In this document: piece by piece, positions 2,976-45,697 of the stretch | Layout of the letters: every line of letters starts with the position of its first letter | How positions within the stretch are numbered: the stretch's first letter is position 1 | IMG/VR virus record: IMGVR_UViG_2918843722_000002 | Location: 4,720 to 68,719 of that record | DNA length: 64,000 nucleotides | Source of the DNA: a virus | Taxonomy: Duplodnaviria > Caudoviricetes | Reading direction: 5' to 3' (one strand) | Program-made: the position numbers and the translations under genes | Notes under the pieces: model-generated | The model's input: the letters and a program-made list of their open reading frames with translations, nothing else | Told to the model about the DNA's origin: nothing | Database searches by the model: none

Positions 2976-3125
2976 TTGGCACCTTCAAAAAGAGCGGCCG
3001 AGTTGCACCGCTAAGCACGCCCCACGGGGCGGGGACCGTTAGGCTCGTGGTTCTGGAGTTGGGTGCCGCTGCGTGGCTTACCGGGAATGCGCCGTAGCCA
3101 ATCCGTGCGCGCTGCGGCGGTAGAG

Positions 3126-3782
3126 TTAGGCGGCTTGCTGGCGAAGCATTTGTTCGTAAGCCGTTACGCGCTTTTCGAACTGCAACAGCTTGGCGACCAT
3201 GTCGTCGATGAACTCTTCGTTGCGCTCGATCCGCTTGATGTACAAGTCGCGCCCGACAGATTCGAGCGCCGGCACGTACTGGATAAAGTCGCAGTAAGCG
3301 CGGCCCGTCAGGAAGAGTCCAAACTGGATCTGATGGTCATATTCCGACGTGTCGCCGGTCATCAGCATATGCATGATCTTGACGGTATCGACAGGGCATT
3401 TTATTTCGATGATGCCGTGATCGTCGTTTAGAAATCCGTCGCTTGAATATCCGAATTTTCGGTCGTCGGACAGGACGATGCCAGACTCCATCGCGAGGTT
3501 GCCGGTCCGCTCCTCGTACAGCATCCGCGCGACAGGCTCCAGAGCATGCCCGCGCTCAAGCGTGTACGCCTTGATCGGCGCAGCGTACGGGACGCCGCTA
3601 ATGCGCTCGAATGCGACCTCGTAAGCGTACTTGTCGGATGCGTCGGTCGGATCACCTGGATTCCTCGATCCAGACTTGCGCTGGAGAACGGAAATCGCAT
3701 CCGAGACGCGCGACGCGGTAATCGCGCCACTTCGGGCTTGTAGCCATTCTTGACTGCCCTGCACTGCTTCGATGAGCAACAT
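3126..3782 (-). CDS. YqaJ/lambda-Exo-type recombination exonuclease
   Basis: QGSQEWLQARSGAITAS, RGHALEP, SSDG...EIKCP, QIQFGL motifs; next to RecT. Confidence 0.92.
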   Translation of the reverse strand: MLLIEAVQGSQEWLQARSGAITASRVSDAISVLQRKSGSRNPGDPTDASDKYAYEVAFERISGVPYAAPIKAYTLERGHALEPVARMLYEERTGNLAMESGIVLSDDRKFGYSSDGFLNDDHGIIEIKCPVDTVKIMHMLMTGDTSEYDHQIQFGLFLTGRAYCDFIQYVPALESVGRDLYIKRIERNEEFIDDMVAKLLQFEKRVTAYEQMLRQQAA

Positions 3783-3783
3783 T

Positions 3784-4422
3784 TCAATCTCCTGTTGCGT
3801 AAAGTGTTCCGTTGACTTTCTTCGGCTCCGAGATGGCGCGCTCGAATGTCCACCCTAAAGTCTTGATGCGGTCGCGGATTCGGTTGTAGTTCAGGCCTAG
3901 CTGCTTACATGCGACCGAAAGAGACATCTCTTTTCCACCCAGAACGACGCGAACAGTTCTTCGCTTGTTGTTGGCCTGATCGCTCAGTGGCATCCACTCG
4001 CAGTTGCCAGGCTCGTAGTCGCCGTCTACGTCACGGCGCTCGATACTCATGCCTTGGGGGCGCGCGCCCATATCTGCATAGAAATTCGCAAATTCGAGCC
4101 ACCGCTCACAAACCTTGATGCCACGACCGCCGTAATGCTTGTATGCGTCCGACCGTGGGTTTGTGCAGCGCTTTATCATGTCGCTCCAACTGAGCCACGC
4201 TCCCGTGCCATGCATTCCATGCTTGACGCCCGAAGTCGCCAATACTTTCCGCCTAAAACACCCGCATGAACGAGTTTGACCTTTGGTGAGCGCGGCAGAC
4301 GTCACAACCTTTTCGCTCCCGCAATCACAAATGCATTTCCACTTGATCGGGGCACGAGCAACCTGCTCCACAACAAGCAAATTCCCGAATCTGTGCCCGG
4401 CCAAGTCAATTCTGGCCGTCAT
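3784..4422 (-). CDS. HNH-type homing endonuclease-like protein
   Basis: DLAGHRFGNLLV...WKCICDCG...SCGC, WSDMIKRC..YGGRGIKVCERW, SIERRDVDGDYEPGNCEW. Confidence 0.85.
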   Translation of the reverse strand: MTARIDLAGHRFGNLLVVEQVARAPIKWKCICDCGSEKVVTSAALTKGQTRSCGCFRRKVLATSGVKHGMHGTGAWLSWSDMIKRCTNPRSDAYKHYGGRGIKVCERWLEFANFYADMGARPQGMSIERRDVDGDYEPGNCEWMPLSDQANNKRRTVRVVLGGKEMSLSVACKQLGLNYNRIRDRIKTLGWTFERAISEPKKVNGTLYATGD

Positions 4423-5432
4423 TGCGTCGCTCCTTCCTTCGCCATCTGGCGCTGAAAGTCTGCTTGCAGGTCCGCGTCATCAGAGCCAGGCTCGCGGCTC
4501 ACTTCCTTGGCCTGCACGTCGATCGTGTTGGCGTCCGCAGGCTTCTGCTTAAGCTCTGTGCCGCGCGCCGACACTGTTTCCTTGAACGTGTTGTAGGCGC
4601 GCATGTCCTTGGTCGGCTTGATGACTGCAAGACCATCCGTCCAGACCTTGCTGAGTGCGTCAGCGTTGGGCGCTGTCTTAGCCTTATCGCACCAGGCGGT
4701 GAGAAGGTCAGCAGGACATTCGTTGCGCTGCTGGATCGGCTCCACGCCCTCCCCGCCTTCGGTGTCCAGAAAGTGGATCGCCTTGTTTAGCCGGTCTGTC
4801 TTCGGCCAGTATTTGTACGCCTGCTTCACGCACGTTTTCTTGATCATTTCTCCGGGGTCGGTTTCCCATGGACCGCGCTTACCCGGCGCGTTGCGCTTCC
4901 ACGATTCCGACCTGTCGCGAATCGCGTAGGCTGCGTCGATGTCCATCGTGTGCGTCAGGTACTCGCCATCAGCCGTTTTAACGACCACATAGACGCCAAC
5001 GATCTCGCCGCGGTCCTTCGAGAACGGGTTGAACTGGTGCAGAGGCATCTTGTCCATGCCGTTCAGCGCAAACGTGTCATTCGCGTGGACGATTTGCGCC
5101 TGCGCCCATTTGATCCCGCCGTCCTGAATGGCGAGGTCGATCAGACCCATGTAGCTGATGTCTAGACAGATCTTCCCCTTGCGCGGGACAAGATAGGCCT
5201 GCTTCTTGGCGGGATTCAAGCTGATGCCGATCGCGGCCACATTGGTCACTGCGTCGATGACAGACTGCTTGTTGTTCATCGCCTGCGTGAGCGCGTAGTC
5301 GTTTCCAGAAATCATCTGGATCGCAAACCCGGCCTCGCGCTCGAAGTTGATCGAGCGGTCTACAGACACTGCTTCGAAACCGGCTCGAACGCCGTAGATT
5401 TCGTTTGTGATGACCTGAAGCGCGTTGCTCAT
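4419..5432 (-). CDS. recT: RecT-family single-strand annealing protein
   Basis: [37 protein letters not shown] motifs; start placed at the ATGA overlap (5432). Confidence 0.9.
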
Positions 5433-9817: not shown

Positions 9818-10750
9818 CTAGTCTGCTTCGACGATTTCGCCGGCAGAATTCAGCGAGTAAAAGACCATCGGTTTCGTTCCCTCCTGACCTACGATCACCG
9901 CCTTGGCATGCACGATTCGGCCGTATTCGTCGCCGTCTGAATCGCTATCCCGATAAACCAGAAATAGCGCGGTACCTTCTACGCCGCGAGCCTTCCCGTA
10001 GAAACCAGATGCCATTGCGGCAGAGTGGCGACCCTCTGCCGTGGCTGCACCGCGGGTGCCGCTTGCCGTGGCTGCACCGCCGGTGCCGCTTGCCGTGGCT
10101 GCACCGCTGTAGCCGCTTGCCGTGGCTGCACCGCTGTAGCCGCTTGCCGTGGCTGCACCGCCGGTGCCGCTTGCCGTGGCTGCACCGCGGGTGCCGCTTG
10201 CCGTGGCTGCACCGCTGTAGCCGCTTGCCGTGGCTGCACCGCCGGTGCCGCTTGCCGTGGCTGCACCGCTGTAGCCGCTTGCCGTGGCTGCACCGCGGGT
10301 GCCGCTTGCCGTGGCTGCACCGCTGTCGCCGCTTGCCGTGGCTGCACCGCCGGTGCCGCTTGCCGTGGCTAGGCCATTTTCTTCAGTGGAGTACGCAGGA
10401 GACTCGGGGTCAATCGGCTTGCAACGAGACATCGTGTATTCGACGGCCGCCTTAATCAGGCCCGCAAGATTCAATTCGACGCCGATCTTGATCTTCGAAC
10501 TGGCAATTTTCGAATCATCGCCGTGACGGCTGATTTGGCCAGATTGTTCAACGGTGAAAAAGCGGCTGCTTGCTGGCGGGTAGTAGCGCAGCACGTCTAG
10601 TGGATATTCACACGCATGGAAACCGCCGGCGCAAGCCTCAACTTTTCCCTTATGCTCAAACGTCTCGCCGGGCGCATATTGAAACCCTCTGCATTGCAGG
10701 TTCGCATCGAAACCCTTGTACGACAGAACCGGTTTTTGATCGTCGCTCAC
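9818..10750 (-). CDS. Phage protein with ATASGxxGA tandem repeats
   Basis: N-terminal SYKGFD..LQCRGFQY...GFHACEYPLDVL domain followed by 12 nine-residue repeats; GTG start with AGGGG RBS. Confidence 0.85.
   Translation of the reverse strand: MSDDQKPVLSYKGFDANLQCRGFQYAPGETFEHKGKVEACAGGFHACEYPLDVLRYYPPASSRFFTVEQSGQISRHGDDSKIASSKIKIGVELNLAGLIKAAVEYTMSRCKPIDPESPAYSTEENGLATASGTGGAATASGDSGAATASGTRGAATASGYSGAATASGTGGAATASGYSGAATASGTRGAATASGTGGAATASGYSGAATASGYSGAATASGTGGAATASGTRGAATAEGRHSAAMASGFYGKARGVEGTALFLVYRDSDSDGDEYGRIVHAKAVIVGQEGTKPMVFYSLNSAGEIVEAD
10037..10370. repeat. 27-bp coding tandem repeat, 12 full units plus a partial unit
   Basis: TGCCGTGGCTGCACCG-N5-GCCGCT unit at an exact 27-bp period from 10037 to 10361. 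Confidence 0.97.
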
Positions 10751-25183: not shown

Positions 25184-25574
25184 GAGTACCCGTCATGGGC
25201 TTGAGTCTGGGTCCGCGAAAACGTTGACTCAGCGAAATCGACCGGAAGATAGGCCGGATGCACGAACCCGTAACGTGCGACAGACAATCCGTTGCCGTGG
25301 CGGCCCATCATTGGGATAGCGCGGACAGCGCCAGCGGGCGGTGTGCTGAACATGAAAACACCCGCAGCACAGCACGCCCTGCCTCGACCGGCGAAACCGG
25401 TCCAAAAGTTCAGGGCGGGGCTGTACGCGATTCGCGCGAGACCGGTGCAGATGAGGTCGCGTGACTGGCATCCCCCAAGCGTTCCAGCGCTTTGCCGGCC
25501 ACATGCCTTGACGCTCGACGGTGCCGGCGCGCGATGATCGTTAGCCGCCTGACCGGCGCAACCGGTCCTTTCAC

Positions 25575-33346: not shown

Positions 33347-35254
33347 ATGCCATTAGAAAAAGGATCGAGCAACAAGGTCGTCGGGCAAAACATAGCCGAA
33401 TTGCGCGCGGCCGGTCACCCGGAGGGCCAGTCGATCGCTATAGCCATGAAAGAGGCCGGTCGAAGCAAGGCCGACTCAGAGACTGTCCGCGCTGCTGGCA
33501 CGCTGATCATTGCGGACGGCATGGTGCTGTTCCAGCGCCGCGGGCCTGACGCAGATCATCCGGGCGAATGGTGCATTGCTGGCGGCAAGATCGAAGACGG
33601 CGAAACTCCCGAGGAAGCCGCCCGGCGCGAAACGCTTGAGGAAGTCGGCTATGAACCCGATAAGCTGATCAAGCTCGGCACCACGAGCGATGGCGATGTC
33701 GAATTCACGACGTTCTATCACGAGTGCAAGCCATTCGATGTCGTACTGAGCGACGAGAGCACCGACTATACGTGGACTCCCTTGGGAACATGGCCAGAGC
33801 CTTTGCATCCGGGTTGCCGGTTCGTGCTTGAGTCGGACGCTTTCAAGGCAGTCCGCAAGGCGCACATGACGGAGACCGAGGTCGCCCAAGCCATGATGCT
33901 GGGCGAAATGACCTCGCCGCAGTACTGTCGCAACATGTGGCTGTTTGATATCCGCATCACTGGAACCGGCACATCGTACCGCTCCAAGGACGACGAGTAT
34001 GTCTACCGGCCGCCCGAGCATTATCTCAACGATGAATTTCTGGCGCGCTGCAATGGTCTGCCGGTCATCGTCGACCATCCCGAGAAAGCCACTCTCGACT
34101 CGAAAGAGTTCAATGATCGTATCGTGGGATCTGTCCTGCTTCCCTACATCAAGGGAGACGAGGTATGGGCGATCGCGCGGATCTATGACGAAGCGACGGC
34201 AACACTGATGTCGAAGGAACAGTTGTCGACATCTCCGTCTGTCGTATTTCGCAACCCTGCAGTAGAGAATTCCACCGCCACTCTTGACGGTGGGCAGACC
34301 CTCTTGATTGAGGGAAAACCGATCCTGCTCGATCACATCGCTATTTGCGAGGTGGGCGTGTGGGACAAAGGCGGCCCGCCAACCGGCGTATCCACCAACC
34401 ACGTTCAGGAACCTGAGATGACTGAAGAAGAGCGTAAGGCCAAGGCGGACGCCGAGGCGAAAGAAGAACTCGAAGCGCGTGCCAAGGCCGACGCTGAGGC
34501 AAAGGCAAAAGCCGATGCCGAAGAAGAGAAAGCCAAGGTGGATGCCGAGAAGTACGACAAGCTGATCAGCATGTGTGACTCGCTGATGAAGCGCATGGAC
34601 TCGTACGAAGGCAAGAAGGCCGACGCCATGCCGGCGGGAGAACTGCCGGTCGGCGACAAGAAGGCTGACTCCGAGAAGGAAGAAAAGGACGCCAAGGAGA
34701 AGGAAGCTGAGGCGGCCAAGCTCAAGGCAGAGGCCAAGGAAGAAGAAGCCAAGGCTGATGCGGCCAAGCGTGAAAACGCTCTGCTCGCTCGCGTTGGCGA
34801 ACTAGAAAAGATGCTGGCAATGACGGCATCGCTCACGCCGAAGCCCCTTACGGATGCTGATCACGCAGCGATGGCCGACGCGCAGGCGAAAGCCGACAGC
34901 GTCTATTCGGCTCACGGCAAGTCCGCCCCCCGCGCTCTGAATGGCGAAGATTTGCTTGCATACCGCAAGCGTCTTGCCGCACCGATGAAGACCCACAGCA
35001 AGGAATGGCAAAGCATCGACCTCGCCAAGCTTGATGCGGCGACGTTCAGCGTGATCGAGCCCAAGATCTACGCTGACGCGATGGAAGCAGCATTGCACCC
35101 GACTGATCTGGAAGACGGCAGCCTGCGCGCTGTGCCGAAGAACACCGGCACGGGCCACGTGATCACCAACTTCTATGGCAGCTCGCCGCGTGCATGGATG
35201 GGAGACTTCCGCATCCCCAGCAAGAAGAGCCGCATCCATCAACCCAAGCATTAA
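33347..35254 (+). CDS. Nudix hydrolase fused to DUF2213 head maturation protease and scaffold
   Basis: Nudix box [23 protein letters not shown]; [18 protein letters not shown] protease motifs; charged C-terminal coiled coil. Confidence 0.88.
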
Positions 35255-35304
35255 GCATCGAGGTCGACTCCGACACTGTTCGTAGTCGCTCACCACCTTT
35301 GAAG

Positions 35305-35328
35305 AACCCCGCTCCGGCGGGGTTTTTT
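35305..35328 (+). terminator. Rho-independent terminator
   Basis: AACCCCGC-TCCG-GCGGGGTT plus T-run. Confidence 0.8.
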
Positions 35329-35347
35329 ATTTTCTGGATAGGAAATC

Positions 35348-36229
35348 ATGGCATTGAATACGCCTTTCTACCCGTACGCGACTACGAATGCGGCGGGTTC
35401 GTTCTCGGCTCAGTCTGCTGGACTGATCCAGGGTACGGCTTACAACGATCCTGCAGCCCGCTTCGCACTGTCGATCGGCACGCTTTCGGCATCGGCCACT
35501 GGCCCGATCTGGGGCGGCGTCGCAATCTCGGAAAGCATTGCGGCAGCCACTTCGGACAGCTCCGAAGGTGGTTCGATCGTCCAGGCCACGTCGGTCTCCA
35601 ACATCACCGGTTTCTCGGTGTTCGATCAGGCATATAGTTGGGTGTCGTCCCCGCAAAGCCGCGCTCCGAGCGCAGGCTCGGCTGGCGCAACGGTTCCGTT
35701 CTACCGCCTCGGCTCGGGTGCTCGCATCGCTGTGGCAATGGACCCGTCGCTTGCCTCGCTCGACGGCGGCCTGATCACGCAGCAAGTCTCATACGACTTC
35801 AACAACAACATCCTCGTTCCATACAACGCGTCGACTGGCTCGATCAGCGTGACATCGATTACCTCGTCGTTCGCCAACGGCGTCTACACCTTCGCGGTTG
35901 TGACTGCAGCCGCTGCGAACGTTGCAGCGGTGGGTGACGAAATCTTCGTTGCTGGCGTTACCGGCACGGGTGCTTCGCTTGTCAATGGCACGCAGACCAT
36001 CACGTCGTTCACCGACAACCAGCACTTCAGCTTCCAGGTGACGGCGGCTTCGGGCGCCATTGCTACGGGTGCGCTGGCCGGCACGATCACGCTCGTTCAG
36101 GGCACTGGCGCATTGCCGGTCAAGGTTCTCCAGACGAACGTCGGTAACTCGATGACCGTTTCCTACAACCCCAACACTGGCGCAGTCAACTGGAATCGTA
36201 ACGGTTCGGCGGCCATCATTCTTCTCTAA
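35348..36229 (+). CDS. Capsid decoration/cement protein
   Basis: Between the protease and the major capsid gene; GF.VF.QA, V.FYR.GSGARI.V; contains a beta-domain insertion. Confidence 0.7.
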   Translation: MALNTPFYPYATTNAAGSFSAQSAGLIQGTAYNDPAARFALSIGTLSASATGPIWGGVAISESIAAATSDSSEGGSIVQATSVSNITGFSVFDQAYSWVSSPQSRAPSAGSAGATVPFYRLGSGARIAVAMDPSLASLDGGLITQQVSYDFNNNILVPYNASTGSISVTSITSSFANGVYTFAVVTAAAANVAAVGDEIFVAGVTGTGASLVNGTQTITSFTDNQHFSFQVTAASGAIATGALAGTITLVQGTGALPVKVLQTNVGNSMTVSYNPNTGAVNWNRNGSAAIILL

Positions 36230-36238
36230 GGATAAAAC

Positions 36239-37261
36239 ATGGCTAACGTTATTCCAGCAGTCATCCGGGTGAATCCGAGCTATTTCATGCCGGAAAAGAT
36301 CCTGCAGTACCAGCAGGCATCCGGCGCATTTGACACGCTCGCAACCGGTGATCCGCTTGTGCGTCTTGGCGAGGGTGATCTGGCTGTGTATATCGGTCGT
36401 CTCGATGTGCGCACCCAGGTTCAGACCGGCCAGTTCGCCGCGAACCAGTTGCCGAGCTGCGGCATCGAGTACGAAGAAATCAGCACGCCGACTTACCTTC
36501 TGCGTACGCGCGCTGAGTACGATCACCACGATACGGCTGCTTTCGGTCGCACCGGCTCGTCGATCGTTGAGGCGCAACGTCTGGCGATGCGCCAGGGCAT
36601 CTTCCAGCAGATGCGCAACCTACTGCTCTACGGCGCAAACCCGCTGAACGGCGAAGGTCTGCTCAATACCAACGGCGCTACCTCTGTCAACCTGCCGGCA
36701 GACCCGAACGGCAACACGACGATCCAGACGTACGACAACGGCGCACTCGCCTTTTTCCTGCTGCAGCAGATCGGCGCCATCAAGGTCCGCATGATGCAGA
36801 TCGGCATGGGTGCCCGCGTGACCGTGCTGACGACTCAGCGCGTTCTTGAGGCTCTCAGCTATCAGGGCATTGTGCAACTGACGCAGTTCCAGCGCGAAGG
36901 TGCCGGTTCGAAGTCGGTCCGCGGCCTCGTCGACGACGTGCTGGCATGGAACGACGATGAAGTCGTGTGGGCGTGCGACGACACGCTGCTCGGCAAGGGT
37001 GCTGGCGGCACGGACCCGATCATCATCACCATCCCGGAGATCAAGAAGCCGGAAGGCGGCAAGATCAACACGAACGAGTTTGCCCGCCTCACCCCGGGCC
37101 TTGACGCAACCACGCTGCAGCTCATCGACATGGTCGCCCCGCGCGAAATCACGTCGCCGCTCGCCGGCGGTGCTGTTGATGTCGTGTCGGAGTTGCGTTC
37201 GACGTCGGGCTGGGCTGTTCGTCCGGAAGCCCTCTGCGTCATCTCCGCGCAGTACCAGTAA
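36239..37261 (+). CDS. Major capsid protein
   Basis: 340 aa; YG...G.GLLN pattern typical of HK97-fold capsids; synteny. Confidence 0.8.
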   Translation: MANVIPAVIRVNPSYFMPEKILQYQQASGAFDTLATGDPLVRLGEGDLAVYIGRLDVRTQVQTGQFAANQLPSCGIEYEEISTPTYLLRTRAEYDHHDTAAFGRTGSSIVEAQRLAMRQGIFQQMRNLLLYGANPLNGEGLLNTNGATSVNLPADPNGNTTIQTYDNGALAFFLLQQIGAIKVRMMQIGMGARVTVLTTQRVLEALSYQGIVQLTQFQREGAGSKSVRGLVDDVLAWNDDEVVWACDDTLLGKGAGGTDPIIITIPEIKKPEGGKINTNEFARLTPGLDATTLQLIDMVAPREITSPLAGGAVDVVSELRSTSGWAVRPEALCVISAQYQ

Positions 37262-37270
37262 GACCGCTTA

Positions 37271-37327
37271 GCCCGCGCCTAGGATGGCGCATCCGAAAAT
37301 CCGTTCCCTGTACGGATCGGCGCGGGC
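37271..37327 (+). ncRNA. C4-like cis-acting RNA element 1
   Basis: GCCCGCGCC/GGCGCGGGC closing stem, TAGG-hairpin-CC-GAAA, ATCCGT/ACGGAT hairpin. Confidence 0.55.
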
Positions 37328-37358
37328 ACCTTAACAGGGGATCTATACAGGAAAGATC

Positions 37359-37859
37359 ATGCCACTCTACATCTCGAATACCAGCAAGAACCACCAGGAA
37401 ATCAACTTCCGCATCCCCGGTAACAACCGCCACTTCACGGCGAAAATTGCTCCGGGACGTCAGGAGTTGATCTACAAGGAAGGAACCCGCGACGATCATG
37501 TCTCCATCGTTGAGCAGTTGAAGCCGTATGGCTTGCGCTCCGTGGACGAGATTGATCGCTCCAAGGAGTTCGTCGGGCTCTGCTATCAGTTCGATAAGCC
37601 CATCCCTGCTGAAAAGCTGCTTCCGGTCTTCAGTCACAACGACGCTGTGATCATGAAAGAGGCGCAGGAGCGCCGTCAGGAGGCAGCCATTGCGATGGAT
37701 GATGCCTTGAGCCGAAATGCTCAGGAGACTGGCGCAAAGTTCAACGGCCTCGAGGTCGGGATCGAAGAACAGGAACAGAAAGGCGTTGACACAAAAATCA
37801 ACGAGGCGATCGAGGTCGAGAATCCGGCCCGCGGTCGCGGTCGTCGGCGCCGCCCCTAA
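37359..37859 (+). CDS. Head-associated hypothetical protein
   Basis: 166 aa after the major capsid gene, RBS AGGAAAG. Confidence 0.75.
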   Translation: MPLYISNTSKNHQEINFRIPGNNRHFTAKIAPGRQELIYKEGTRDDHVSIVEQLKPYGLRSVDEIDRSKEFVGLCYQFDKPIPAEKLLPVFSHNDAVIMKEAQERRQEAAIAMDDALSRNAQETGAKFNGLEVGIEEQEQKGVDTKINEAIEVENPARGRGRRRRP

Positions 37860-37868
37860 AGAGGAAAT

Positions 37869-38372
37869 ATGTGCACGCCCTGCTTTCCGCCGCCGCCTGG
37901 TATGGGCGTGCTCGCCCCGTGGCAAACACAGGCGGCTCCTAATGCCGCAGACCTGTACACATTCTTGACGACCGTCGCCGGCATCCCGGCTACTGATCTG
38001 CCGTCAAATAGCCCGTATGTCACGTGGGCGCTCAGCTACGCTGAAGAGAAAACGCTGATGGTGTTGTATGCCATCGGTCAGGACTATTACTGCTTCGCCG
38101 TCTACTGTCTCGCCACATCGTTCCTGCTGAACTGGTGCCCCGATCAGTCAGGTCAGACGTTCTTCGCCCAGACCCGTGCAGACATGAAGTTGACCAGCTT
38201 TACGCCGGGCGTGGTGAACTCGGCGGCAGATCAAGGCACGTCCGATTCCCTCCTTTCTCCGGACTTCCTGAAGGGATTGACGCTGGGGCAGTTGCAGGCC
38301 TTGCGCGATCCTTACGGAAGGCAATGGCTATCCATGCAGCAGGACGTCGGAAATGTGTGGGGCTTGTCTTGA
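37869..38372 (+). CDS. Head-tail adaptor (DUF4054-like)
   Basis: GVVNSAADQGTS...L..PYGRQWL motif; synteny. Confidence 0.7.
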   Translation: MCTPCFPPPPGMGVLAPWQTQAAPNAADLYTFLTTVAGIPATDLPSNSPYVTWALSYAEEKTLMVLYAIGQDYYCFAVYCLATSFLLNWCPDQSGQTFFAQTRADMKLTSFTPGVVNSAADQGTSDSLLSPDFLKGLTLGQLQALRDPYGRQWLSMQQDVGNVWGLS

Positions 38373-38380
38373 GGTGAATC

Positions 38381-38932
38381 ATGGCGGCAAAAGACTTCGG
38401 CGTGCCGATGGCGGAAGGCGGCGGAAGCTATTCCCCCGTCCACGTCGGCACCACGACTGCGCCGCCGGGCCGCATCACATTGCATCTCGGCGTGATCGAT
38501 GTTCCGTATGTAGATGGCGGATCGAAGGGAAAGAAAGGCAAGAAAAGCGCGGCCACGAAGACAACTGGCGAGGTCGCCGAAATCCTCGAAGAAAAATACG
38601 GTGTGCTCGATACGTTCGCTTTCGCGCGTCTCCCCGACATCGCCAAGGCGCTTGAGGAATCTATCGCCGGACAACTCGAAAACATGTTGATGGGCGGTCG
38701 TCCTTCAGGCAATCCGTTCGCTAGCGCCGAATCGTCCATCACGACGATGATGAAGAACTTCATCTCGTCTCAGCAGATTGAGCACATGGGCATTGAAGGC
38801 GTCCCGACTCAGGCTGCTTTGAACGGCGTCAATCATCGCCTGAAGCATCCATATGCGAAGGGAAACCCTCGCCGTCCATCGTTCATTGACACATCGCTTT
38901 ACTGGTCTACGCTAACCGCATGGGTTGATTAA
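38381..38932 (+). CDS. Neck/tail completion protein
   Basis: P.RPSFIDT..Y C-terminal motif; synteny. Confidence 0.65.
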   Translation: MAAKDFGVPMAEGGGSYSPVHVGTTTAPPGRITLHLGVIDVPYVDGGSKGKKGKKSAATKTTGEVAEILEEKYGVLDTFAFARLPDIAKALEESIAGQLENMLMGGRPSGNPFASAESSITTMMKNFISSQQIEHMGIEGVPTQAALNGVNHRLKHPYAKGNPRRPSFIDTSLYWSTLTAWVD

Positions 38933-39879
38933 TGCCATCTATCGCTGAATCGCTAGGCACGCAAAGCCAACTGGCAAGCACGCTTGCGGCCGGCGTTGAT
39001 CAGATCTCGCAAAGCCAGGAAATCACTTTCACGAGGTATAGTCAGTCGGTCTTAGCTGCTGACGGGTATGTATTTTGGGTGAATACCGGGCAAACGCAAA
39101 CGGTCAAAGGCTCGTTACACCAGGTAACCGATCAACAGCAGAACGAAGACGAGACGATCGACGTCAACCGCATCGTTTTTACGGCTCTGAGCCAGATCGA
39201 TGTTTTTAACGCCGCGTCTCCTACCGATCTTTTTATCGGCGTGATCGACGGCGTCCGGTTCTCGTTCAATGCTCGAGGCGCGCTCTACCGGCAAGCCAAC
39301 CTGTATCACTACGTTGGGAATGCGGTCTATCCGGCACTTGCCTCGCAACTGATCGACAGTGAAGCCGATCTTCCAACCGGGCCGATAGTCTCTAACAGTC
39401 TGCCTATATGGCTGGCACAAAGCACGCCGCAGTTGCCTGTTTATCCGTCGTATCTGGTCCCCGCTAACGTCGTGCCGCCCTATATCGTGGCCCACGTCGA
39501 ACCGGATGCAACAGAGGCACCATCCTTCCCGATCTATGTCTGGCCGGGAACTGTCGTGCCAAATTCTGGTGCTTCGCCGTTGCATAACTTGCCTAGCTCG
39601 CAGCTCGCCAAAGACAAGGTCCGGTTGACCATGTACGGCCTGACCAACCAGCAGGCCACACAGTTCTACGCGAGCCTGATCGACTATTCGCTGAACACGG
39701 ACAACTTCGGATTTGGCAATTCTCCGGCGATCAAAGACGCCAAGCGCACGCAATCTGAACTCAATGTGATTGCCATGAAAAAGACGCTTGACATCGAGGC
39801 TTGGTATTTCCAGACGACCTCAGACGCGATTGCCCGACGATTAATTCTCTCCGCTGGTTTTTCTTCCATCAACACCTGA
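38932..39879 (+). CDS. Head closure/tail terminator-type structural protein
   Basis: TAATG coupling; DGYVFWV motif; synteny. Confidence 0.6.
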   Translation: MPSIAESLGTQSQLASTLAAGVDQISQSQEITFTRYSQSVLAADGYVFWVNTGQTQTVKGSLHQVTDQQQNEDETIDVNRIVFTALSQIDVFNAASPTDLFIGVIDGVRFSFNARGALYRQANLYHYVGNAVYPALASQLIDSEADLPTGPIVSNSLPIWLAQSTPQLPVYPSYLVPANVVPPYIVAHVEPDATEAPSFPIYVWPGTVVPNSGASPLHNLPSSQLAKDKVRLTMYGLTNQQATQFYASLIDYSLNTDNFGFGNSPAIKDAKRTQSELNVIAMKKTLDIEAWYFQTTSDAIARRLILSAGFSSINT

Positions 39880-39902
39880 CAGACGTTAGGTGATCCACAC
39901 AG

Positions 39903-39930
39903 ACCCCGCCTCGGCGGGGTTTTTCTTTTT
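39903..39930 (+). terminator. Rho-independent terminator
   Basis: ACCCCGCC-TC-GGCGGGGT plus T-run. Confidence 0.8.
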
Positions 39931-39942
39931 CAGGAGCGTGAC

Positions 39943-40308
39943 ATGCCCCAAGCACCTTTGAATGCAGCAACCGCCGTCAATCCGTCCGGCAAATTTGTGA
40001 TGAACCAGGTCGATGCTCAAGGCAATGAGTTCATCGCCTCGGGCAAGACTGGCGTCTACAACATCACCGCAGCTACTGCTGTTAAAGCCAGCGCTGGCCG
40101 TCTTGTGCGGATCGTCGTCACCAGCACGATCACCGGGAGTCTGACTGCGAACGACGCCGCTACAACCGGCGCAGCCGCAGCAGCAAACCTCATCTTCTCG
40201 GCAGCGACTCCGGCGGCCGGCACCGTCTACACCCTTGACTGGCCTTGCGCGAACGGCATCGTCGTGACTCCCGGAACGGCTGGCTCCGTCGCAGTTTCGT
40301 ACATCTAA
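39943..40308 (+). CDS. Small beta-sandwich virion protein
   Basis: AGGAG RBS; A/T/G-rich, GIVVTPG..V.VSY. Confidence 0.7.
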   Translation: MPQAPLNAATAVNPSGKFVMNQVDAQGNEFIASGKTGVYNITAATAVKASAGRLVRIVVTSTITGSLTANDAATTGAAAAANLIFSAATPAAGTVYTLDWPCANGIVVTPGTAGSVAVSYI

Positions 40309-40326
40309 TAGCTGGAGACCGCCCAC

Positions 40327-41652
40327 ATGGCGACCACAATCACACCGACGATCGTAACGGTCAATACGACCGTCACGCGCGCGCCGACCGTCTCGCAGCT
40401 TCAGCAAAGCGGCGCGATTGTGTCTGCGGGCGGTACGACGCTTACTGCTGGTACCTACCAGTATTGCGGAACGCTCTCCGCAGTTCAGGCGCTTCTAGCG
40501 ACGCCTTTGGCTTTGACTGGCATGGTCTGGTCGACCGGCACTGTCACGGCAACTACTGCCGCGGCCATCGGGCTTTCGACGGGGCAGACGTTCACCACGA
40601 CCATTGCTGGCGCGACGCCGGCTGGCTATAACGGCACGTACGTCGCAACGGTTACGGGCGCCAACACCTTCACGTTCGCGCTTGCGACGAACCCCGGCAC
40701 CGAAACTGTCCCAGGCACGTACCTGCCGTCGAACGCTGGCTTTATCAGCAATTCGGCAACTACGTTCTTCGCACAGGGTAATTCTGTCGGCGTCTACGTG
40801 CTCGAGTTGGGCGCACAGACCACGGCGGCCTCGGCAATCACTGCCTTGCAAACGTGGATCACTGCGAACAGTAATCCGCAAGTGTTCTATGCCTATCTGT
40901 TGCCGACGTCGTGGGATACGGCCTCGTCTGCCGCATTGAACACGATGACGGCGAACTACGACAGCCCGAGCGGCCAGACGTACTTCTTCGTTACGACCAC
41001 CGTCGCGAACCTCCCGAACTATGCCAATAACAAGGCTGTTTATGCGCAGGTTCCCAGCCCGACGAAGGCGTCAACCGAACATCAGTTGGCGGTTGACTTT
41101 TATAACTGGCTCGTGAACAAGCCGGGATCGTCGAACCCGTTGGCGCCGATGTCGTATCGCTATGCATATGGCGTCACGCCCTGGTCGCAAAACGGCAACC
41201 AGACCAATATCAACACGGTTCTGACCAACTACGGCAACCTGATTTTGACTGGTGCCGAGGGCGGCATTTCCACCGCGTGCGTTTTCAAGGGCACGACGAT
41301 GGATGGCGAACAGGCCGCCTGGTGGTATGGCATCGACTGGTTCCGCATTCAGGTCAAGCAGGCGCTCGCCGCGGCAATCATCAACGGCTCGAACAGCAAT
41401 CCGCCGCTGCTCTATGACCAGAACGGAATCAACACGCTGCTCGCCGTTGCGCAAAACGTGGCTAACTCCGCGGTCAAGTTCGGTTGCGCGTTGAGCGCAG
41501 TCGTCACTGCCGTGCCGTTTTCGACGTATACGACGGAAAACCCGAACGACTACAACGCAGGCATCTACAACGGCTTCGCGGCGACAGTGGTTGGTCAGAA
41601 TGCGTTTTTGACCCTGACTTTCAATCTTGACGCTACGCAGTTCGTTGCTTAA
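40327..41652 (+). CDS. Tail sheath protein
   Basis: 441 aa; WYGIDWF...L...IING.N....L.YDQ.GI sheath C-terminal pattern. Confidence 0.8.
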   Translation: MATTITPTIVTVNTTVTRAPTVSQLQQSGAIVSAGGTTLTAGTYQYCGTLSAVQALLATPLALTGMVWSTGTVTATTAAAIGLSTGQTFTTTIAGATPAGYNGTYVATVTGANTFTFALATNPGTETVPGTYLPSNAGFISNSATTFFAQGNSVGVYVLELGAQTTAASAITALQTWITANSNPQVFYAYLLPTSWDTASSAALNTMTANYDSPSGQTYFFVTTTVANLPNYANNKAVYAQVPSPTKASTEHQLAVDFYNWLVNKPGSSNPLAPMSYRYAYGVTPWSQNGNQTNINTVLTNYGNLILTGAEGGISTACVFKGTTMDGEQAAWWYGIDWFRIQVKQALAAAIINGSNSNPPLLYDQNGINTLLAVAQNVANSAVKFGCALSAVVTAVPFSTYTTENPNDYNAGIYNGFAATVVGQNAFLTLTFNLDATQFVA

Positions 41653-41661
41653 GGACGCACC

Positions 41662-42105
41662 ATGGCAAATCCCTATCTCAATGCGGGTCCGCTAAACCGC
41701 GTCCGATGCTCCGTCGTAGTGGCGGCCTTCCCCACGCTGAACATCACGGCCCAGTATATGGGCAAGAGTTTTGCGAGAATCGAACTGGAGGGAGACTTCG
41801 TCCAACAGATCGAAACAGCAACCGGCGTCGTGAATTCTCCGGAGCCGTATGTCATGGCCTCAATCACCATTGGGCTGCTTCGCTCACAAGCCCTTGCCGC
41901 GAATTGGCTTGCCCAGGCCCAAGACACTGGCATACTTGGTGATGTGACCATTCACAGCGACACTTCGGCCTTCCCGGCCATCACATTGTCAGACACGGCG
42001 ATTCGGAGCTTGGACCCGGGCGCTTACGATGGAACTGATCCTGTCGTCAGACTTGTGCTGCGCGGGACGACGAATATCAATTCGTCAATGTGGTCGTTCA
42101 CCTGA
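41662..42105 (+). CDS. Tail tube protein
   Basis: 147 aa after the sheath; V.SPEPY motif. Confidence 0.75.
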   Translation: MANPYLNAGPLNRVRCSVVVAAFPTLNITAQYMGKSFARIELEGDFVQQIETATGVVNSPEPYVMASITIGLLRSQALAANWLAQAQDTGILGDVTIHSDTSAFPAITLSDTAIRSLDPGAYDGTDPVVRLVLRGTTNINSSMWSFT

Positions 42106-42119
42106 CATATAATGTCAGA

Positions 42120-42172
42120 GCGCGGATAGGGTAGCTCCCGACACGGTTGGTTTGACCGCCAATCTTCCGCGC
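42120..42172 (+). ncRNA. C4-like cis-acting RNA element 2
   Basis: GCGCGGA/TCCGCGC closing stem, TAGGG-TAGCT-CCC-GACA, GGTTGG/CCAATC hairpin. Confidence 0.55.
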
Positions 42173-42204
42173 CTTCCAATGGTCTCCTCTAGTCAAGGAA
42201 CAGC

Positions 42205-43170
42205 ATGAATTTCGATTGCGGAATTTATAGCATCGTCGGGCCCGGCGGGAAAATGTACATTGGGCAAACTCAAAGCTTCAAGACCAGGTGGCTGACACAT
42301 CGAACTAGGCTTCGCAGCGGATTGCATCATTGCAAACCTCTGCAGAACGCATGGAACAAATATGGCGAGAGTTCATTCATTTTCGCCAAGATCGCCATTG
42401 TTCCGAAAGATGAGCTTACTCTCAGAGAGCAAGAGCAGATTGATTCCTACATAAATGCGGGCGAGCGGCGAAAGTTATACAACACATCTCTGTATGTAGC
42501 GAAGCCCATGCGCGGCATTAAAGGCATCGACCATCCTGCATCACTCCCGGTTTTGTGCATCACAACCCAAAAGGTGTTTATAAACGGATTGGCTGCTGCT
42601 CAATGGCTACGGGAAAATGGGCATCCGAAAGCGGATAATTCGACCATTAGTGCGGCCTGTTCCGGACGTCGCCTGAGAACGGCATACGGATTCCGGTGGG
42701 GGCGCCCCGGAGACGAGGATAAGCCGCAAGCAATAACTATCAAAAATGTGCGCCGCGGTGCCACCCATTATGCTGCACGATCTGTTGTATGCATTCAAAC
42801 CGGAATGCAGTTCGGTACGGTTAGCGAAGCCGCCCAGTGGCTAAGAAATCATGGATTCCCAACGGCGTCGCACAGACATATCTCGGCGCTGTGCAATGGC
42901 CGCCGCGGACAGACTGCGTATGGTTATCAATGGAAGTACGCAGGCGATCCCGACCCGGGCCCAGTAAAAGGGAGGCCGCGAGGAGCGGATAATCACAAGT
43001 CGCGGTCCATTCTTTGCATCGAGGAAGGAATCCGATTTGATCTCATGAGTGATGCCGCAGAATGGCTCAAAAATAAAGGCTTCGCCAAGGCCGCGCTTTC
43101 TTCGCTAAGCCTAGCCTGCTCGGGAAAACTGAAATCCGCCTACGGTTTCCACTGGAAGTACGCAGACTAA
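42205..43170 (+). CDS. GIY-YIG homing endonuclease with three NUMOD1-like repeats
   Basis: GIYSI...MYIGQT...RW..H; three V.CI.TG..F....AA.WL...IS..C.G....AYG..W repeats. Confidence 0.92.
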   Translation: MNFDCGIYSIVGPGGKMYIGQTQSFKTRWLTHRTRLRSGLHHCKPLQNAWNKYGESSFIFAKIAIVPKDELTLREQEQIDSYINAGERRKLYNTSLYVAKPMRGIKGIDHPASLPVLCITTQKVFINGLAAAQWLRENGHPKADNSTISAACSGRRLRTAYGFRWGRPGDEDKPQAITIKNVRRGATHYAARSVVCIQTGMQFGTVSEAAQWLRNHGFPTASHRHISALCNGRRGQTAYGYQWKYAGDPDPGPVKGRPRGADNHKSRSILCIEEGIRFDLMSDAAEWLKNKGFAKAALSSLSLACSGKLKSAYGFHWKYAD

Positions 43171-43190
43171 ACGAATCATCAAACATCACT

Positions 43191-43216
43191 AAGCCGCCCA
43201 TTGAGGCGGCTTTTTG
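43191..43216 (+). terminator. Rho-independent terminator
   Basis: AAGCCGCC/GGCGGCTT plus T-run. Confidence 0.75.
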
Positions 43217-43220
43217 CTTT

Positions 43221-43272
43221 GCCACGGCTAGGGACGCGACCTGAACGCCGGCACCTTACTGGTTGCCGTGGC
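43221..43272 (+). ncRNA. C4-like cis-acting RNA element 3
   Basis: GCCACGGC/GCCGTGGC closing stem, TAGGG-ACGCGA-CCT-GAAC, GCCGG/CTGGT hairpin. Confidence 0.55.
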
Positions 43273-43302
43273 ACCTCATAAGGCTCAGTTAAAGGGATTG
43301 AG

Positions 43303-43965
43303 ATGAAGATCGACGAACGGCGGAATCTGGTTCTGCCCGTCGTGACAGATAAGGTCACGAAGAAAGTCATAAAGCAGATCGACGGAAAAGACGTGCCGGC
43401 TGAAATCACCGAAGATGTGGTGCGGATCTATGCTTTTCACACTCCGGTCTCTCGCGCCATCTTCGAGCAGCACTACCGCGTTCTGGCCGCCACCAAGGCT
43501 TCCCTGTCGAGCAAGGGCGCCCACTACTTGATGGGCGCTGGCCCGCGAATCGCAGCGTTGACTCTGAAAGACGAAGGTCGGAAAGAGGCTGCTAGTTTAG
43601 GCATGGTTGACGAGCTCGGCAATATTCACGATGAGGCGACTGACGCACTCTTCGCCGAGTTCAAACGTCTCACGACCATCCTTTGCCCGGGCCCGAACGG
43701 CTGGGACATGCTACCCGTAGAGACCGCCATCTCGAGCGGAAAGATCGACGCTGAGGATTGGGAGGAAACGGTCGCCGCCGTCACTTTTTTTACCTGTCAC
43801 TATGCGATGGCGAAAAAGGCGGATCGCGAGACGGCGGCGAAGGGAACTGCATCCTTTCTGGGTGCGTCGATCACATCATCCACGCCTATGGAATTCATCG
43901 CCTCTTTGCCGACATTGACGCAGGACGCGCCTACGACAAAGACACCATCGTCGATTCCATCCTGA
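43303..43965 (+). CDS. Tail assembly chaperone
   Basis: Between tube and tape measure; slippery T-TTT-TTT at 43785-43791. Confidence 0.75.
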   Translation: MKIDERRNLVLPVVTDKVTKKVIKQIDGKDVPAEITEDVVRIYAFHTPVSRAIFEQHYRVLAATKASLSSKGAHYLMGAGPRIAALTLKDEGRKEAASLGMVDELGNIHDEATDALFAEFKRLTTILCPGPNGWDMLPVETAISSGKIDAEDWEETVAAVTFFTCHYAMAKKADRETAAKGTASFLGASITSSTPMEFIASLPTLTQDAPTTKTPSSIPS

Positions 43966-44081
43966 ACTACATCGCCACCGAGGGATTCGGCGAGGTGTTT
44001 GAGCGGTACGACAGCCCGTATCGAACAGCGCAGCAGTTCCGTCATCGGTATCTGATCGAGGCGCTTAAGAGGCCAGCATGA
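43791..44081 (+). CDS. -1 frameshift extension of the tail assembly chaperone (GT-like)
   Basis: -1 frame open from the slippery site to TGA at 44081, which overlaps the tape-measure ATG; no good independent start. Confidence 0.65.
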   Translation, partial: YLSLCDGEKGGSRDGGEGNCILSGCVDHIIHAYGIHRLFADIDAGRAYDKDTIVDSILNYIATEGFGEVFERYDSPYRTAQQFRHRYLIEALKRPA

Positions 44082-45697
44082 CGCAAAAAGCAATCGTCGA
44101 TATTGAGCTTAATGACTCGCAGTTTCGCGAGTTTCACGCCCTCTTTACCGACTACCAGAAGAAGCTGGAATCGATGCCCGAGGACTGGGCAAAGGTCACC
44201 GGCTCGATCGACGATGCCGGCGCGGGGATGGCGGACTTCTCCAAGTCGTCGAAGCTCTCGAAAGAATTCCTGATGATTGCAGCCATTCAGGCGAACGCAA
44301 TCACTCAAGGCCTACAAAAGGCAACCGGCGCGCAGGACAAGTTCAACACCAAGACGAAAGACGGCGCCCTCCAGATGGGCCGCATGGCCAAGTTCTCGAA
44401 AGAAGTCCATAAAGACATCTCCAAGATGAGCGGCGTCCTCCTGAAACTGGGGGCTATCGGCGGGTCGCTGCTGTCATTTCCGGCCGCCGTCTTTGCGTCG
44501 ACCAATGCGCTCGCGGGGCAAAACCTTCAGGCCCGTGGGCTTGGCCTGAGAATCGGCCAGACACAGGCGTTTGGCGCGAATTTTGAAAAGTTTGGCCTCG
44601 GCTCGTCAGACCTCGGGAATGTTTCGAATGCCCAAGGCGACGTCAGCAAATGGCGCGCTTTCATGGCTGCCGGCCTGACACCGGATCAGATTCAGAACGA
44701 GGATGCGGAGCAACTCACCTATGACTTCGCCCGGGCGGCCAGCGGAAAATTTCGTGAGTGGCAAAAATCTGGCATGCCGGCCGCATCCATGGCTCAGGCA
44801 TACGGCTTCACCGACCTGCTCTCGCTTCAGCAACTTCGTACCGGCGCCAGTTACAGCGACTCAGACTGGATGAAGGCGCAGCAGAAGGAAATTGCCGATG
44901 CGAAGCGCAACGAGATCGACCAGGGCACCGCAGATCAGGCATCTGACGTAAAGGCCGCGCTGAAGTCGGATTGGGCTCAGGTAATGAATGAGTTCAACGG
45001 ACAGTTAGCTCAGATGGCGCCTGAATTGAAGACAATGGGCGACGCTGCCGCTGCAGCAGCCGTCAACCTTCTGAAGGTCGCCGGTCCGGAGGCGAAAGCG
45101 GTTATTGATGCTCTGCAGGGGCCGCCGGTATCTCGCGACGCTGCCGCGAAGGGCGGCGTTGTGGGAGGACTCGCGACGGCAGGTTATTGGTTGCGCGACA
45201 AGATTCCCGGGCTGCGGAATGCCTTCTCAGGTTCGGGATCGGACTCTTTCGGGACGTTAGGCGCACCGACGATGGCGGGCATCATCGATGCCCAGTACAC
45301 GGTTGAGTCTGCGCGCGGCAAGAAATTGCTGTCGCCCAAAGGTGCAATGGGGCCGATGCAGTTCATGCCCGACACCTGGAAGCAATGGGGCCATGGCGAC
45401 GTCAACAATCTCAAGGATTCCCAGGACGCCGCGCAACGATATGATGCATTCCTCCTGAAACGCTACGGCGGAGATGTGAGGAAAGCGCTCGCTGCCTATA
45501 ACTGGGGGATGGGTAACCTGGACAAGGATGTCGCGAAGAACGGAGAAAACTGGGAATCGCATGCGCCGCGCGAGACTCGCGACTATATCGCCAAAATCAC
45601 GCAACTGATGCTTCGACAAGGCCAGAACGTCAACATCAACATCACCAACTCGACGCCCGCCCGTGTCGCGACATCAATGAACGCAGCGCAGCACTGA
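44078..45697 (+). CDS. Tape measure protein with C-terminal lytic transglycosylase (SLT) domain
   Basis: Helical N-terminus; VES, SPKGAMGPMQFMPDT, ALAAYNWG, ETRDY. Confidence 0.9.
   Translation: MTQKAIVDIELNDSQFREFHALFTDYQKKLESMPEDWAKVTGSIDDAGAGMADFSKSSKLSKEFLMIAAIQANAITQGLQKATGAQDKFNTKTKDGALQMGRMAKFSKEVHKDISKMSGVLLKLGAIGGSLLSFPAAVFASTNALAGQNLQARGLGLRIGQTQAFGANFEKFGLGSSDLGNVSNAQGDVSKWRAFMAAGLTPDQIQNEDAEQLTYDFARAASGKFREWQKSGMPAASMAQAYGFTDLLSLQQLRTGASYSDSDWMKAQQKEIADAKRNEIDQGTADQASDVKAALKSDWAQVMNEFNGQLAQMAPELKTMGDAAAAAAVNLLKVAGPEAKAVIDALQGPPVSRDAAAKGGVVGGLATAGYWLRDKIPGLRNAFSGSGSDSFGTLGAPTMAGIIDAQYTVESARGKKLLSPKGAMGPMQFMPDTWKQWGHGDVNNLKDSQDAAQRYDAFLLKRYGGDVRKALAAYNWGMGNLDKDVAKNGENWESHAPRETRDYIAKITQLMLRQGQNVNINITNSTPARVATSMNAAQH

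Follow-up and report, generated by a model that had tools for sequence, protein, structure and literature searches.

Three small structured RNA elements in the late structural region of a Burkholderia-type prophage most likely act as leaders that set how much protein is made from the genes that follow them, as judged from their sequences and those of their relatives. The window analyzed here is a 64,000-nucleotide (nt) stretch of an IMG/VR provirus record (IMGVR_UViG_2918843722_000002, positions 4,720 to 68,719), whose closest named relatives are Paraburkholderia and Caballeronia prophages. All three elements are intergenic and lie on the + strand, element 1 at 37271-37327, element 2 at 42120-42172 and element 3 at 43221-43272. 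We consider it probable that each is a cis-acting leader whose single targeting loop alternates between pairing with a parking site and pairing with the ribosome-binding site (RBS), throttling translation of the downstream gene. The proposed translational mechanism is well supported by comparative evidence, and the elements add to int-alpA (RF02996), a known but unexplained RNA family, with one of them a divergent variant.

Each element forms a three-way junction of stems P1, P2 and P3, and the shared fold described in a first-pass annotation of this DNA is present in all three stretches: a closing stem of 7-9 bp leads through UAG into a short hairpin, which a GAMM junction links to the second hairpin. 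The UAG after P1 and the GAAA-type J2/3, which all three elements have, are features of int-alpA, as is a purine box 3' of P1 that complements the P3 loop, also found here. When positions 34000-45000 were compared with Rfam by cmscan, element 1 scored 52.8 bits and element 3 scored 36.5 bits against int-alpA, both passing the gathering score of 35.8, while element 2 had no Rfam match at E ≤ 10 and stayed below the int-alpA threshold. The consensus of the int-alpA model has a CCuU P3 loop and a conserved AgGG in the 3' tail, so that complementarity between loop and box is built into the family. By these matches, elements 1 and 3 are canonical int-alpA members and do not belong to the phage P1 C4 family. 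The first-pass annotation had likened the elements to C4-type RNAs, an identity that we rejected because C4, c4-2 and c4-a1b1 gave no match at E ≤ 10 in the same scan.

Element 2 can be placed with covariance models from which it was left out. We built one from homologues of elements 1 and 3 (R1) and another from diverse bacterial members (R2), and used them, with filters off, to scan both strands of the window from end to end. R1 gave 58.3 bits for element 1, 60.5 for element 3 and, in third place, 24.9 for element 2, with the next match at 13 bits; the corresponding R2 scores were 51.7, 54.4 and 20.2 bits, with anything else at 14.7 bits or less. The P2 hairpin of element 2, GGGUAGCUCCC, is identical to that of four loci that are themselves Rfam int-alpA matches (L144, L148, L153 and L162). 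On this evidence element 2 is a divergent relative within a phage-borne int-alpA-like subfamily that lies below the reach of the Rfam model. Beyond these three, neither R1 nor R2 found any copy above 15 bits on either strand of the window, and a crude pattern scan of the + strand recovered the three elements plus two weak candidates within coding sequence. A degenerate fourth copy, suggested earlier near 35256-35290, fell away, as the stretch matches neither the Rfam model nor our own models at E ≤ 10 and adjoins an ordinary intrinsic terminator (35300-35329).

DNA matches to public phage genomes were all distant and partial, and we therefore used loci from IMG/VR and GTDB for comparison. Across 45 distinct sequences, 96.8% of cells in the junction stems are paired and 14 of 17 pairs have changed on both sides. 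The alignment was fitted to a model, which favors pairing, but the margin is nonetheless large, since slid registers give 35-48% and none of 500 shuffles reaches the observed values. Single-sequence folding is less telling, with z = -2.5 for element 1, -1.9 for element 3 and -0.8 for element 2 relative to shuffles, and only element 1 is clearly better than its shuffles. In IMG/VR, about 35 of 80 capsid-homologue loci have element 1 immediately past the stop codon of the capsid gene, and others have a plain hairpin or terminator at its position; element 3 is conserved ahead of homologues of the gene at 43303-43965. Among sampled Burkholderiales genomes, 27 of 151 contain int-alpA, and the layout of these members is the same as in the phage: junction, pyrimidine-rich linker, box 1, Shine-Dalgarno sequence (SD) and start codon, with the SD frequently looped out by a small hairpin. 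In three relatives, L039, L042 and L043 (about 3517-3680), the element 1-type RNA is bracketed by intrinsic terminators, one following the capsid gene and the other separating box 1 from box 2, and looks like a free-standing small RNA gene.

In element 1, recovered by Rfam, R1, R2 and folding, P1 is formed by 37271-37279 and 37319-37327, P2 spans 37282-37294, J2/3 is GAAAA, and P3 (37300-37316) holds out the loop UCCCUGU (37305-37311). The complement ACAGGG at 37334-37339 is the parking site, box 1, which would form a pseudoknot with the P3 loop. The second copy, UACAGG (37346-37351), lies in the SD region and is presented by a small GAUCU/AGAUC hairpin, after which comes the start codon at 37359 (37340-37361 for hairpin and start codon together). 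Element 3, recovered by Rfam, R1 and R2, is built alike, with P1 at 43221-43228/43265-43272, P2 at 43231-43242 and P3 at 43247-43263 carrying the loop CACCUUA (43252-43258). Its complement UAAGG at 43279-43283 is box 1, and the SD, which is also box 2 (AAGG, 43292-43295), sits in the loop of a CUCAGUU/GAUUGAG hairpin (43284-43302) immediately before the ATG at 43303. The stem of this SD hairpin covaries, CUCA/UGAG alternating with CUGA/UCAG. In element 2, recovered by R1, R2 and comparison with relative L164, P1 is formed by 42120-42126 and 42166-42172, P2 spans 42129-42139, and P3 (42145-42164) carries the loop UUGACC (42152-42157). The stretch UUUGACC complements GGUC at 42181-42184, box 1, and GUCAA at 42192-42196, box 2, which is fused to the SD AAGGA (42195-42199) ahead of the ATG at 42205.

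The loop-to-two-sites matches proposed in the first-pass annotation are thus present at their coordinates in all three elements, and its view of a single reused RNA module whose second loop pairs with two sites at the downstream RBS is supported. The three loops differ from one another, and a matrix of loops against leaders shows none matching the leader of another element. Because the module is reused, its loop complements two RBS-proximal sites, and the loops are distinct and do not cross-match, translational control is the best reading. Box spacing is uniform, with box 1 at -22 to -29 and box 2 at -10 to -14 from the ATG, and box 2 overlaps the SD of the downstream gene, as in leaders that sequester an RBS.

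The comparative evidence for box 1 comes from phage and Burkholderiales members. Since sites must not be chosen by their own complementarity, we fixed the register by setting the final CC of each loop against the first GG of its leader and counted on ungapped anchored ends. Flanking positions pair in 90% of cases at the anchored register versus 33-64% at slid registers, and none of 10,000 shuffles reaches this value. Pair types vary, position 2 being G:C in 18 and U:A in 17, and position 3 being U:A, A:U, G:C or C:G. This is good evidence for the predicted pseudoknot pairing of the P3 loop with box 1.

The evidence for box 2 comes mainly from the subfamily of element 2. Searching IMG/VR with the P2 sequence of element 2 gave 119 matches, 75 of them proper three-way junctions in phages, whose compact loops come in 48 distinct versions. 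A leader's own loop finds a complement of 5.5 nt in the box 1 zone versus 3.2 nt for other loops, and one of 5.0 nt in the zone past box 1 versus 3.65 nt; for neither zone was the observed total reached in 20,000 permutations. Directly after the second site there is almost always GG(U) or AGG(U), at 6-10 nt from the start codon. Relatives L203 and L192 differ by a triple compensatory change, with the loop and both boxes altered to match. As own-loop complements exceed those of other loops, are fused to the SD, and change together in the L203/L192 pair, the comparison indicates that pairing of the loop with an SD-adjacent site is under selection in this subfamily. A related case is seen in L092 and L094, where an AP2-HNH endonuclease gene (2422-2985) with its own leader (loop UUGAACA, target UGUUCAAGG) replaces element 3. 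This loop is not anti-SD-like, and its complement UGUUCAA is joined directly to AAGGA ahead of the inserted gene. The 5' strand of P3 together with the loop (CCUUGAACA) forms a 9-nt complement of the SD region while the 3' strand of P3 mimics the SD, so that the leader looks like a classical alternative-pairing switch.

These data also bear on an explanation in which only the pairing of loop and box 1 matters, the element being a purely structural pseudoknot that serves as an mRNA stabilizer, a processing signal or an insulator between cistrons, with the resemblance of box 2 a by-product of its being an SD. Box 1 covariation is far stronger than that of box 2 in the set comprising element 1, element 3 and bacterial members, the duplex with box 1 is more stable than that with box 2, and at the post-capsid junction relatives lacking the element have a plain hairpin or terminator instead. 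We nevertheless regard this explanation as improbable, since loops in the element 2 subfamily that are not anti-SD-like still have an SD-fused, covarying complement, and L092 matches 7 nt at the SD and only 4 nt at box 1.

Several observations weigh against a throttle that toggles in cis. In the element 1, element 3 and bacterial set, box 2 shows weak covariation outside the SD core that all have in common (0.65 vs 0.56, p ~0.04), and the SD match is partly trivial because the loops are anti-SD-like. The element 3 loop resembles a shortened 3' end of 16S ribosomal RNA (CACCUCCUUA), and would therefore recognize the same SD-like sequences as the ribosome. The covariation of loop and target expected from the first-pass annotation accordingly stands for box 1, where it is strong, and for box 2 in the element 2 subfamily, and is weak for box 2 elsewhere. 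Taken singly, the complementarities of elements 2 and 3 are modest, a match at both sites being reached by 327 and 586 of 20,000 leader shuffles, respectively, compared with 2 of 20,000 for element 1; what makes these matches convincing is the comparative data rather than single-leader shuffles. The pairing energies given below are those of the duplexes and leave out full pseudoknot and loop-loop terms. Element 2 lacks the small SD-presenting hairpin, which is lineage-specific. Lastly, a terminator separates box 1 from box 2 in five relatives, which makes a role strictly in cis less secure.

Those five terminators would fit a c4-like antisense RNA, in which the junction is cut out or ended at a terminator, accumulates, and represses box 2 of other transcripts in trans, such as those of co-infecting relatives, with loop/box pairs giving specificity as in P1/P7 immunity. 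Three of the five loci also have a terminator before the element, an arrangement that resembles a free-standing small RNA gene, and relatives differ in their loop/box pairs. As for P1 c4, RNA and target are co-transcribed and the target covers an RBS (PMC8198154). The lack of C4-type model matches noted above argues against it, as does complementarity that is confined to one loop: on reading the sequences, the P2 loops (GCG, UAGCU and ACGCGA) have no complements in the leaders, and the P3 loop alone has downstream complements. Moreover, box 1 sits at a fixed 7-10 nt past P1, as expected of an intramolecular pseudoknot, and loop-complementary 6-mers in the window are neither enriched nor concentrated at other start codons or RBSs. 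We judge action in trans as the main function to be quite improbable.

A further possibility is that the junction is a riboswitch-like or protein-binding aptamer, in which a ligand or a phage or host protein bound at the UAG and GAAA residues chooses between box 1 and the SD. Riboswitches commonly combine a three-way junction, a pseudoknot and an adjacent SD, and the junction residues here are nearly invariant among otherwise very different members. The gene context suggests no ligand or partner, the downstream genes being heterogeneous (nucleases, replication and structural genes), and an aptamer would complement the loop-toggling explanation and not replace it; we think such an aptamer very unlikely. 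CsrA/Rsm sites (CANGGA) were also considered, as ACAGGGA and CAAGGA fit, and were rejected as a general explanation because box 1 of element 3 (UAAGGC) and of element 2 (GGUC) has no GGA.

In the cis-acting leader that we favor, the three-way junction with its conserved UAG and GAAA would hold out the P3 loop, which could pair either with box 1, forming the pseudoknot, or with box 2, which is fused to, or is itself, the SD of the downstream gene. The loop could not hold both boxes together, and the balance would decide how often the RBS is free, setting translation in cis. In all three elements the box 1 duplex is somewhat more stable than that at the SD site (-11.2 vs -8.5 kcal/mol for element 1, -7.7 vs -5.4 for element 2 and -4.7 vs -4.3 for element 3). 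In the simplest model, the loop would normally rest on box 1 and partly on the SD, lowering initiation to a level set by the relative strength of the two pairings, and by the small SD hairpin where one is present. An effect on translation and a direction for it are inferred here, as would be any trigger. In most element 1- and element 3-type loci, P1 starts 7-11 nt past the upstream stop codon, and a terminating ribosome would extend into P1, possibly coupling the switch to upstream translation, although this is speculation.

Element 2 differs from the other two in how it came to be in this operon. It serves a GIY-YIG homing endonuclease gene (42205-43170, + strand; PHROG homing endonuclease families, Pfam GIY-YIG) that is followed by an intrinsic terminator (43191-43212, +), which closes the cassette. 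Element, endonuclease and terminator fill exactly the interval between the stop codon of the putative tail gene (41662-42105) and element 3, and in relatives that lack the endonuclease (L082-L091) the stop codon of the tail gene runs straight into element 3. L164 has the same arrangement, with an endonuclease 69% identical and an element 2 homologue scoring 33.5 bits; between the two copies of element 2, P1 and P3 show compensatory changes, and the loop and both boxes are unchanged. Upstream, a palindrome (TGACATATAATGTCA, 42103-42117, +) that is identical in L164 contains a perfect TATAAT (42108-42113), ending 6 nt before P1, which is the probable -10 box of the cassette. Among 45 elements of the subfamily, 22 have a -10-like hexamer at an element 2-like distance before P1, versus about 3 expected; because of this enrichment at the same distance, leaders of this type probably start their own transcripts. 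We found no promoter signal above background for elements 1 and 3. Element 2 thus seems to have arrived with an inserted homing endonuclease cassette that brings its own -10 box and terminator, and is not, as first annotated, part of the structural operon's own design. When 20 genes downstream of subfamily leaders were sampled, 8 encoded HNH, GIY-YIG or Endonuclease VII nucleases, and others were replication or regulatory genes. In three further relatives (L005, ~2981-3982; L007, ~3520-4524; L012, ~3520-4435), an extra stretch of ~0.9-1 kb with an open reading frame lies between the capsid stop and an element 1-type RNA, placed relative to that RNA as the endonuclease cassette of the window is to element 3. 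Mobile genes may preferentially land in the DNA immediately 5' of these conserved RNAs.

Element 1 directly follows the major capsid gene (36239-37261; PHROG 6671/264, Pfam Major_capside) and precedes a + strand gene without a function label (37359-37859). Element 3 would act on the gene following the putative tail tube (43303-43965, +), which has no family assignment and is itself followed by a gene encoding an SLT domain; the label 'tail chaperone' that it was first given has no support in PHROG/Pfam-type assignments. That elements 1 and 3 set stoichiometry within the structural operon is plausible, with element 2 being the contribution of the endonuclease cassette. Strong intrinsic terminators also occur within the structural block, at 35300-35329 (+) after the gene at 33347-35254 and at 39901-39922 (+) after the gene at 38932-39879, which implies that late transcription proceeds by read-through or antitermination. 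Elsewhere, the same prophage has another orphan phage RNA motif, a Proteo-phage-1 RNA (RF03044) at 25289-25369 (+) that scores 48.1 bits against a gathering score of 42. A tandem array at 10037-10370, with 12.4 copies of a 27-nt unit (91% matches), is a source of weak GC-hairpin matches with RNA models; with a period divisible by three, the array probably lies in a coding region and encodes a 9-residue peptide repeat.

If the leaders work as we suggest, int-alpA gains a concrete and testable job as a cis leader whose loop is competed for by a decoy and an RBS. The scaffold accepts many loop/target pairs, with 48 distinct loops in one subfamily, and points to a natural set of orthogonal translational regulators, of which the window, with three orthogonal copies, is an example. 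It also suggests how phages tune gene dosage in long late operons and how selfish nucleases bring their own expression control. A more ambitious proposal, which we hold to be speculative and on balance unlikely, is that int-alpA-type leaders are portable, programmable throttles, with a constant scaffold to which one loop and two boxes lend specificity, and that freed junction RNA might act in trans on relatives with the same boxes, giving c4-like cross-talk or exclusion between co-infecting phages. Were this true, a phage could have many mutually orthogonal copies, able to travel with homing endonucleases.

Three known systems invite comparison. The first is int-alpA itself, a candidate RNA from the survey of Weinberg et al. 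2017 (PMC5737381), which Rfam files as 'Gene; sRNA' without a function, and for which our full-text literature search found no functional study or discussion of the motif. The elements of the window have in common with it the three-way junction with its UAG and GAAA residues, a P3 loop of the CCUU type and the AgGG of the 3' tail. They differ in that the Rfam model ends at box 1, whereas here the SD and start codon follow at a fixed distance, and in lying within a phage structural operon as three copies with different loops.

The second is the c4 RNA of phages P1 and P7, whose a and b boxes were reportedly described by Citron and Schuster in 1990. C4 has two loops (a' and b'), each complementary to its own target box, and RNase P processing of a precursor yields a stable 77-nt RNA. 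Like c4 (Rfam C4 RF01695, c4-2 and c4-a1b1), the elements are small structured RNAs co-transcribed with their target, with a loop facing duplicated boxes, one of them over an RBS, and with loop/box pairs that set specificity. Unlike c4, they have one targeting loop rather than two, no immunity context and no match to the covariance models. In P1, shut-off of the icd-ant operon requires the antisense RNA c4 (PMC8198154).

The third comparison is with the homing endonucleases of T-even phages, for which sequestration of the RBS by RNA structure is an established form of control (PMC2988022). As with the hairpins of I-TevI, I-TevII, I-TevIII, segB and mobE, RNA structure at the SD would limit a selfish nuclease in a phage operon, and a promoter, here a probable one, adjoins the structure. 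The T-even hairpins are simple, local and dependent on the transcript start (PMC2988022), whereas in this prophage the anti-SD loop belongs to a separate three-way junction and would be competed for by a decoy site, and genes that do not encode nucleases also have the module. By analogy, the elements of this prophage would work in principle like both c4 and the T-even hairpins while belonging to neither family.

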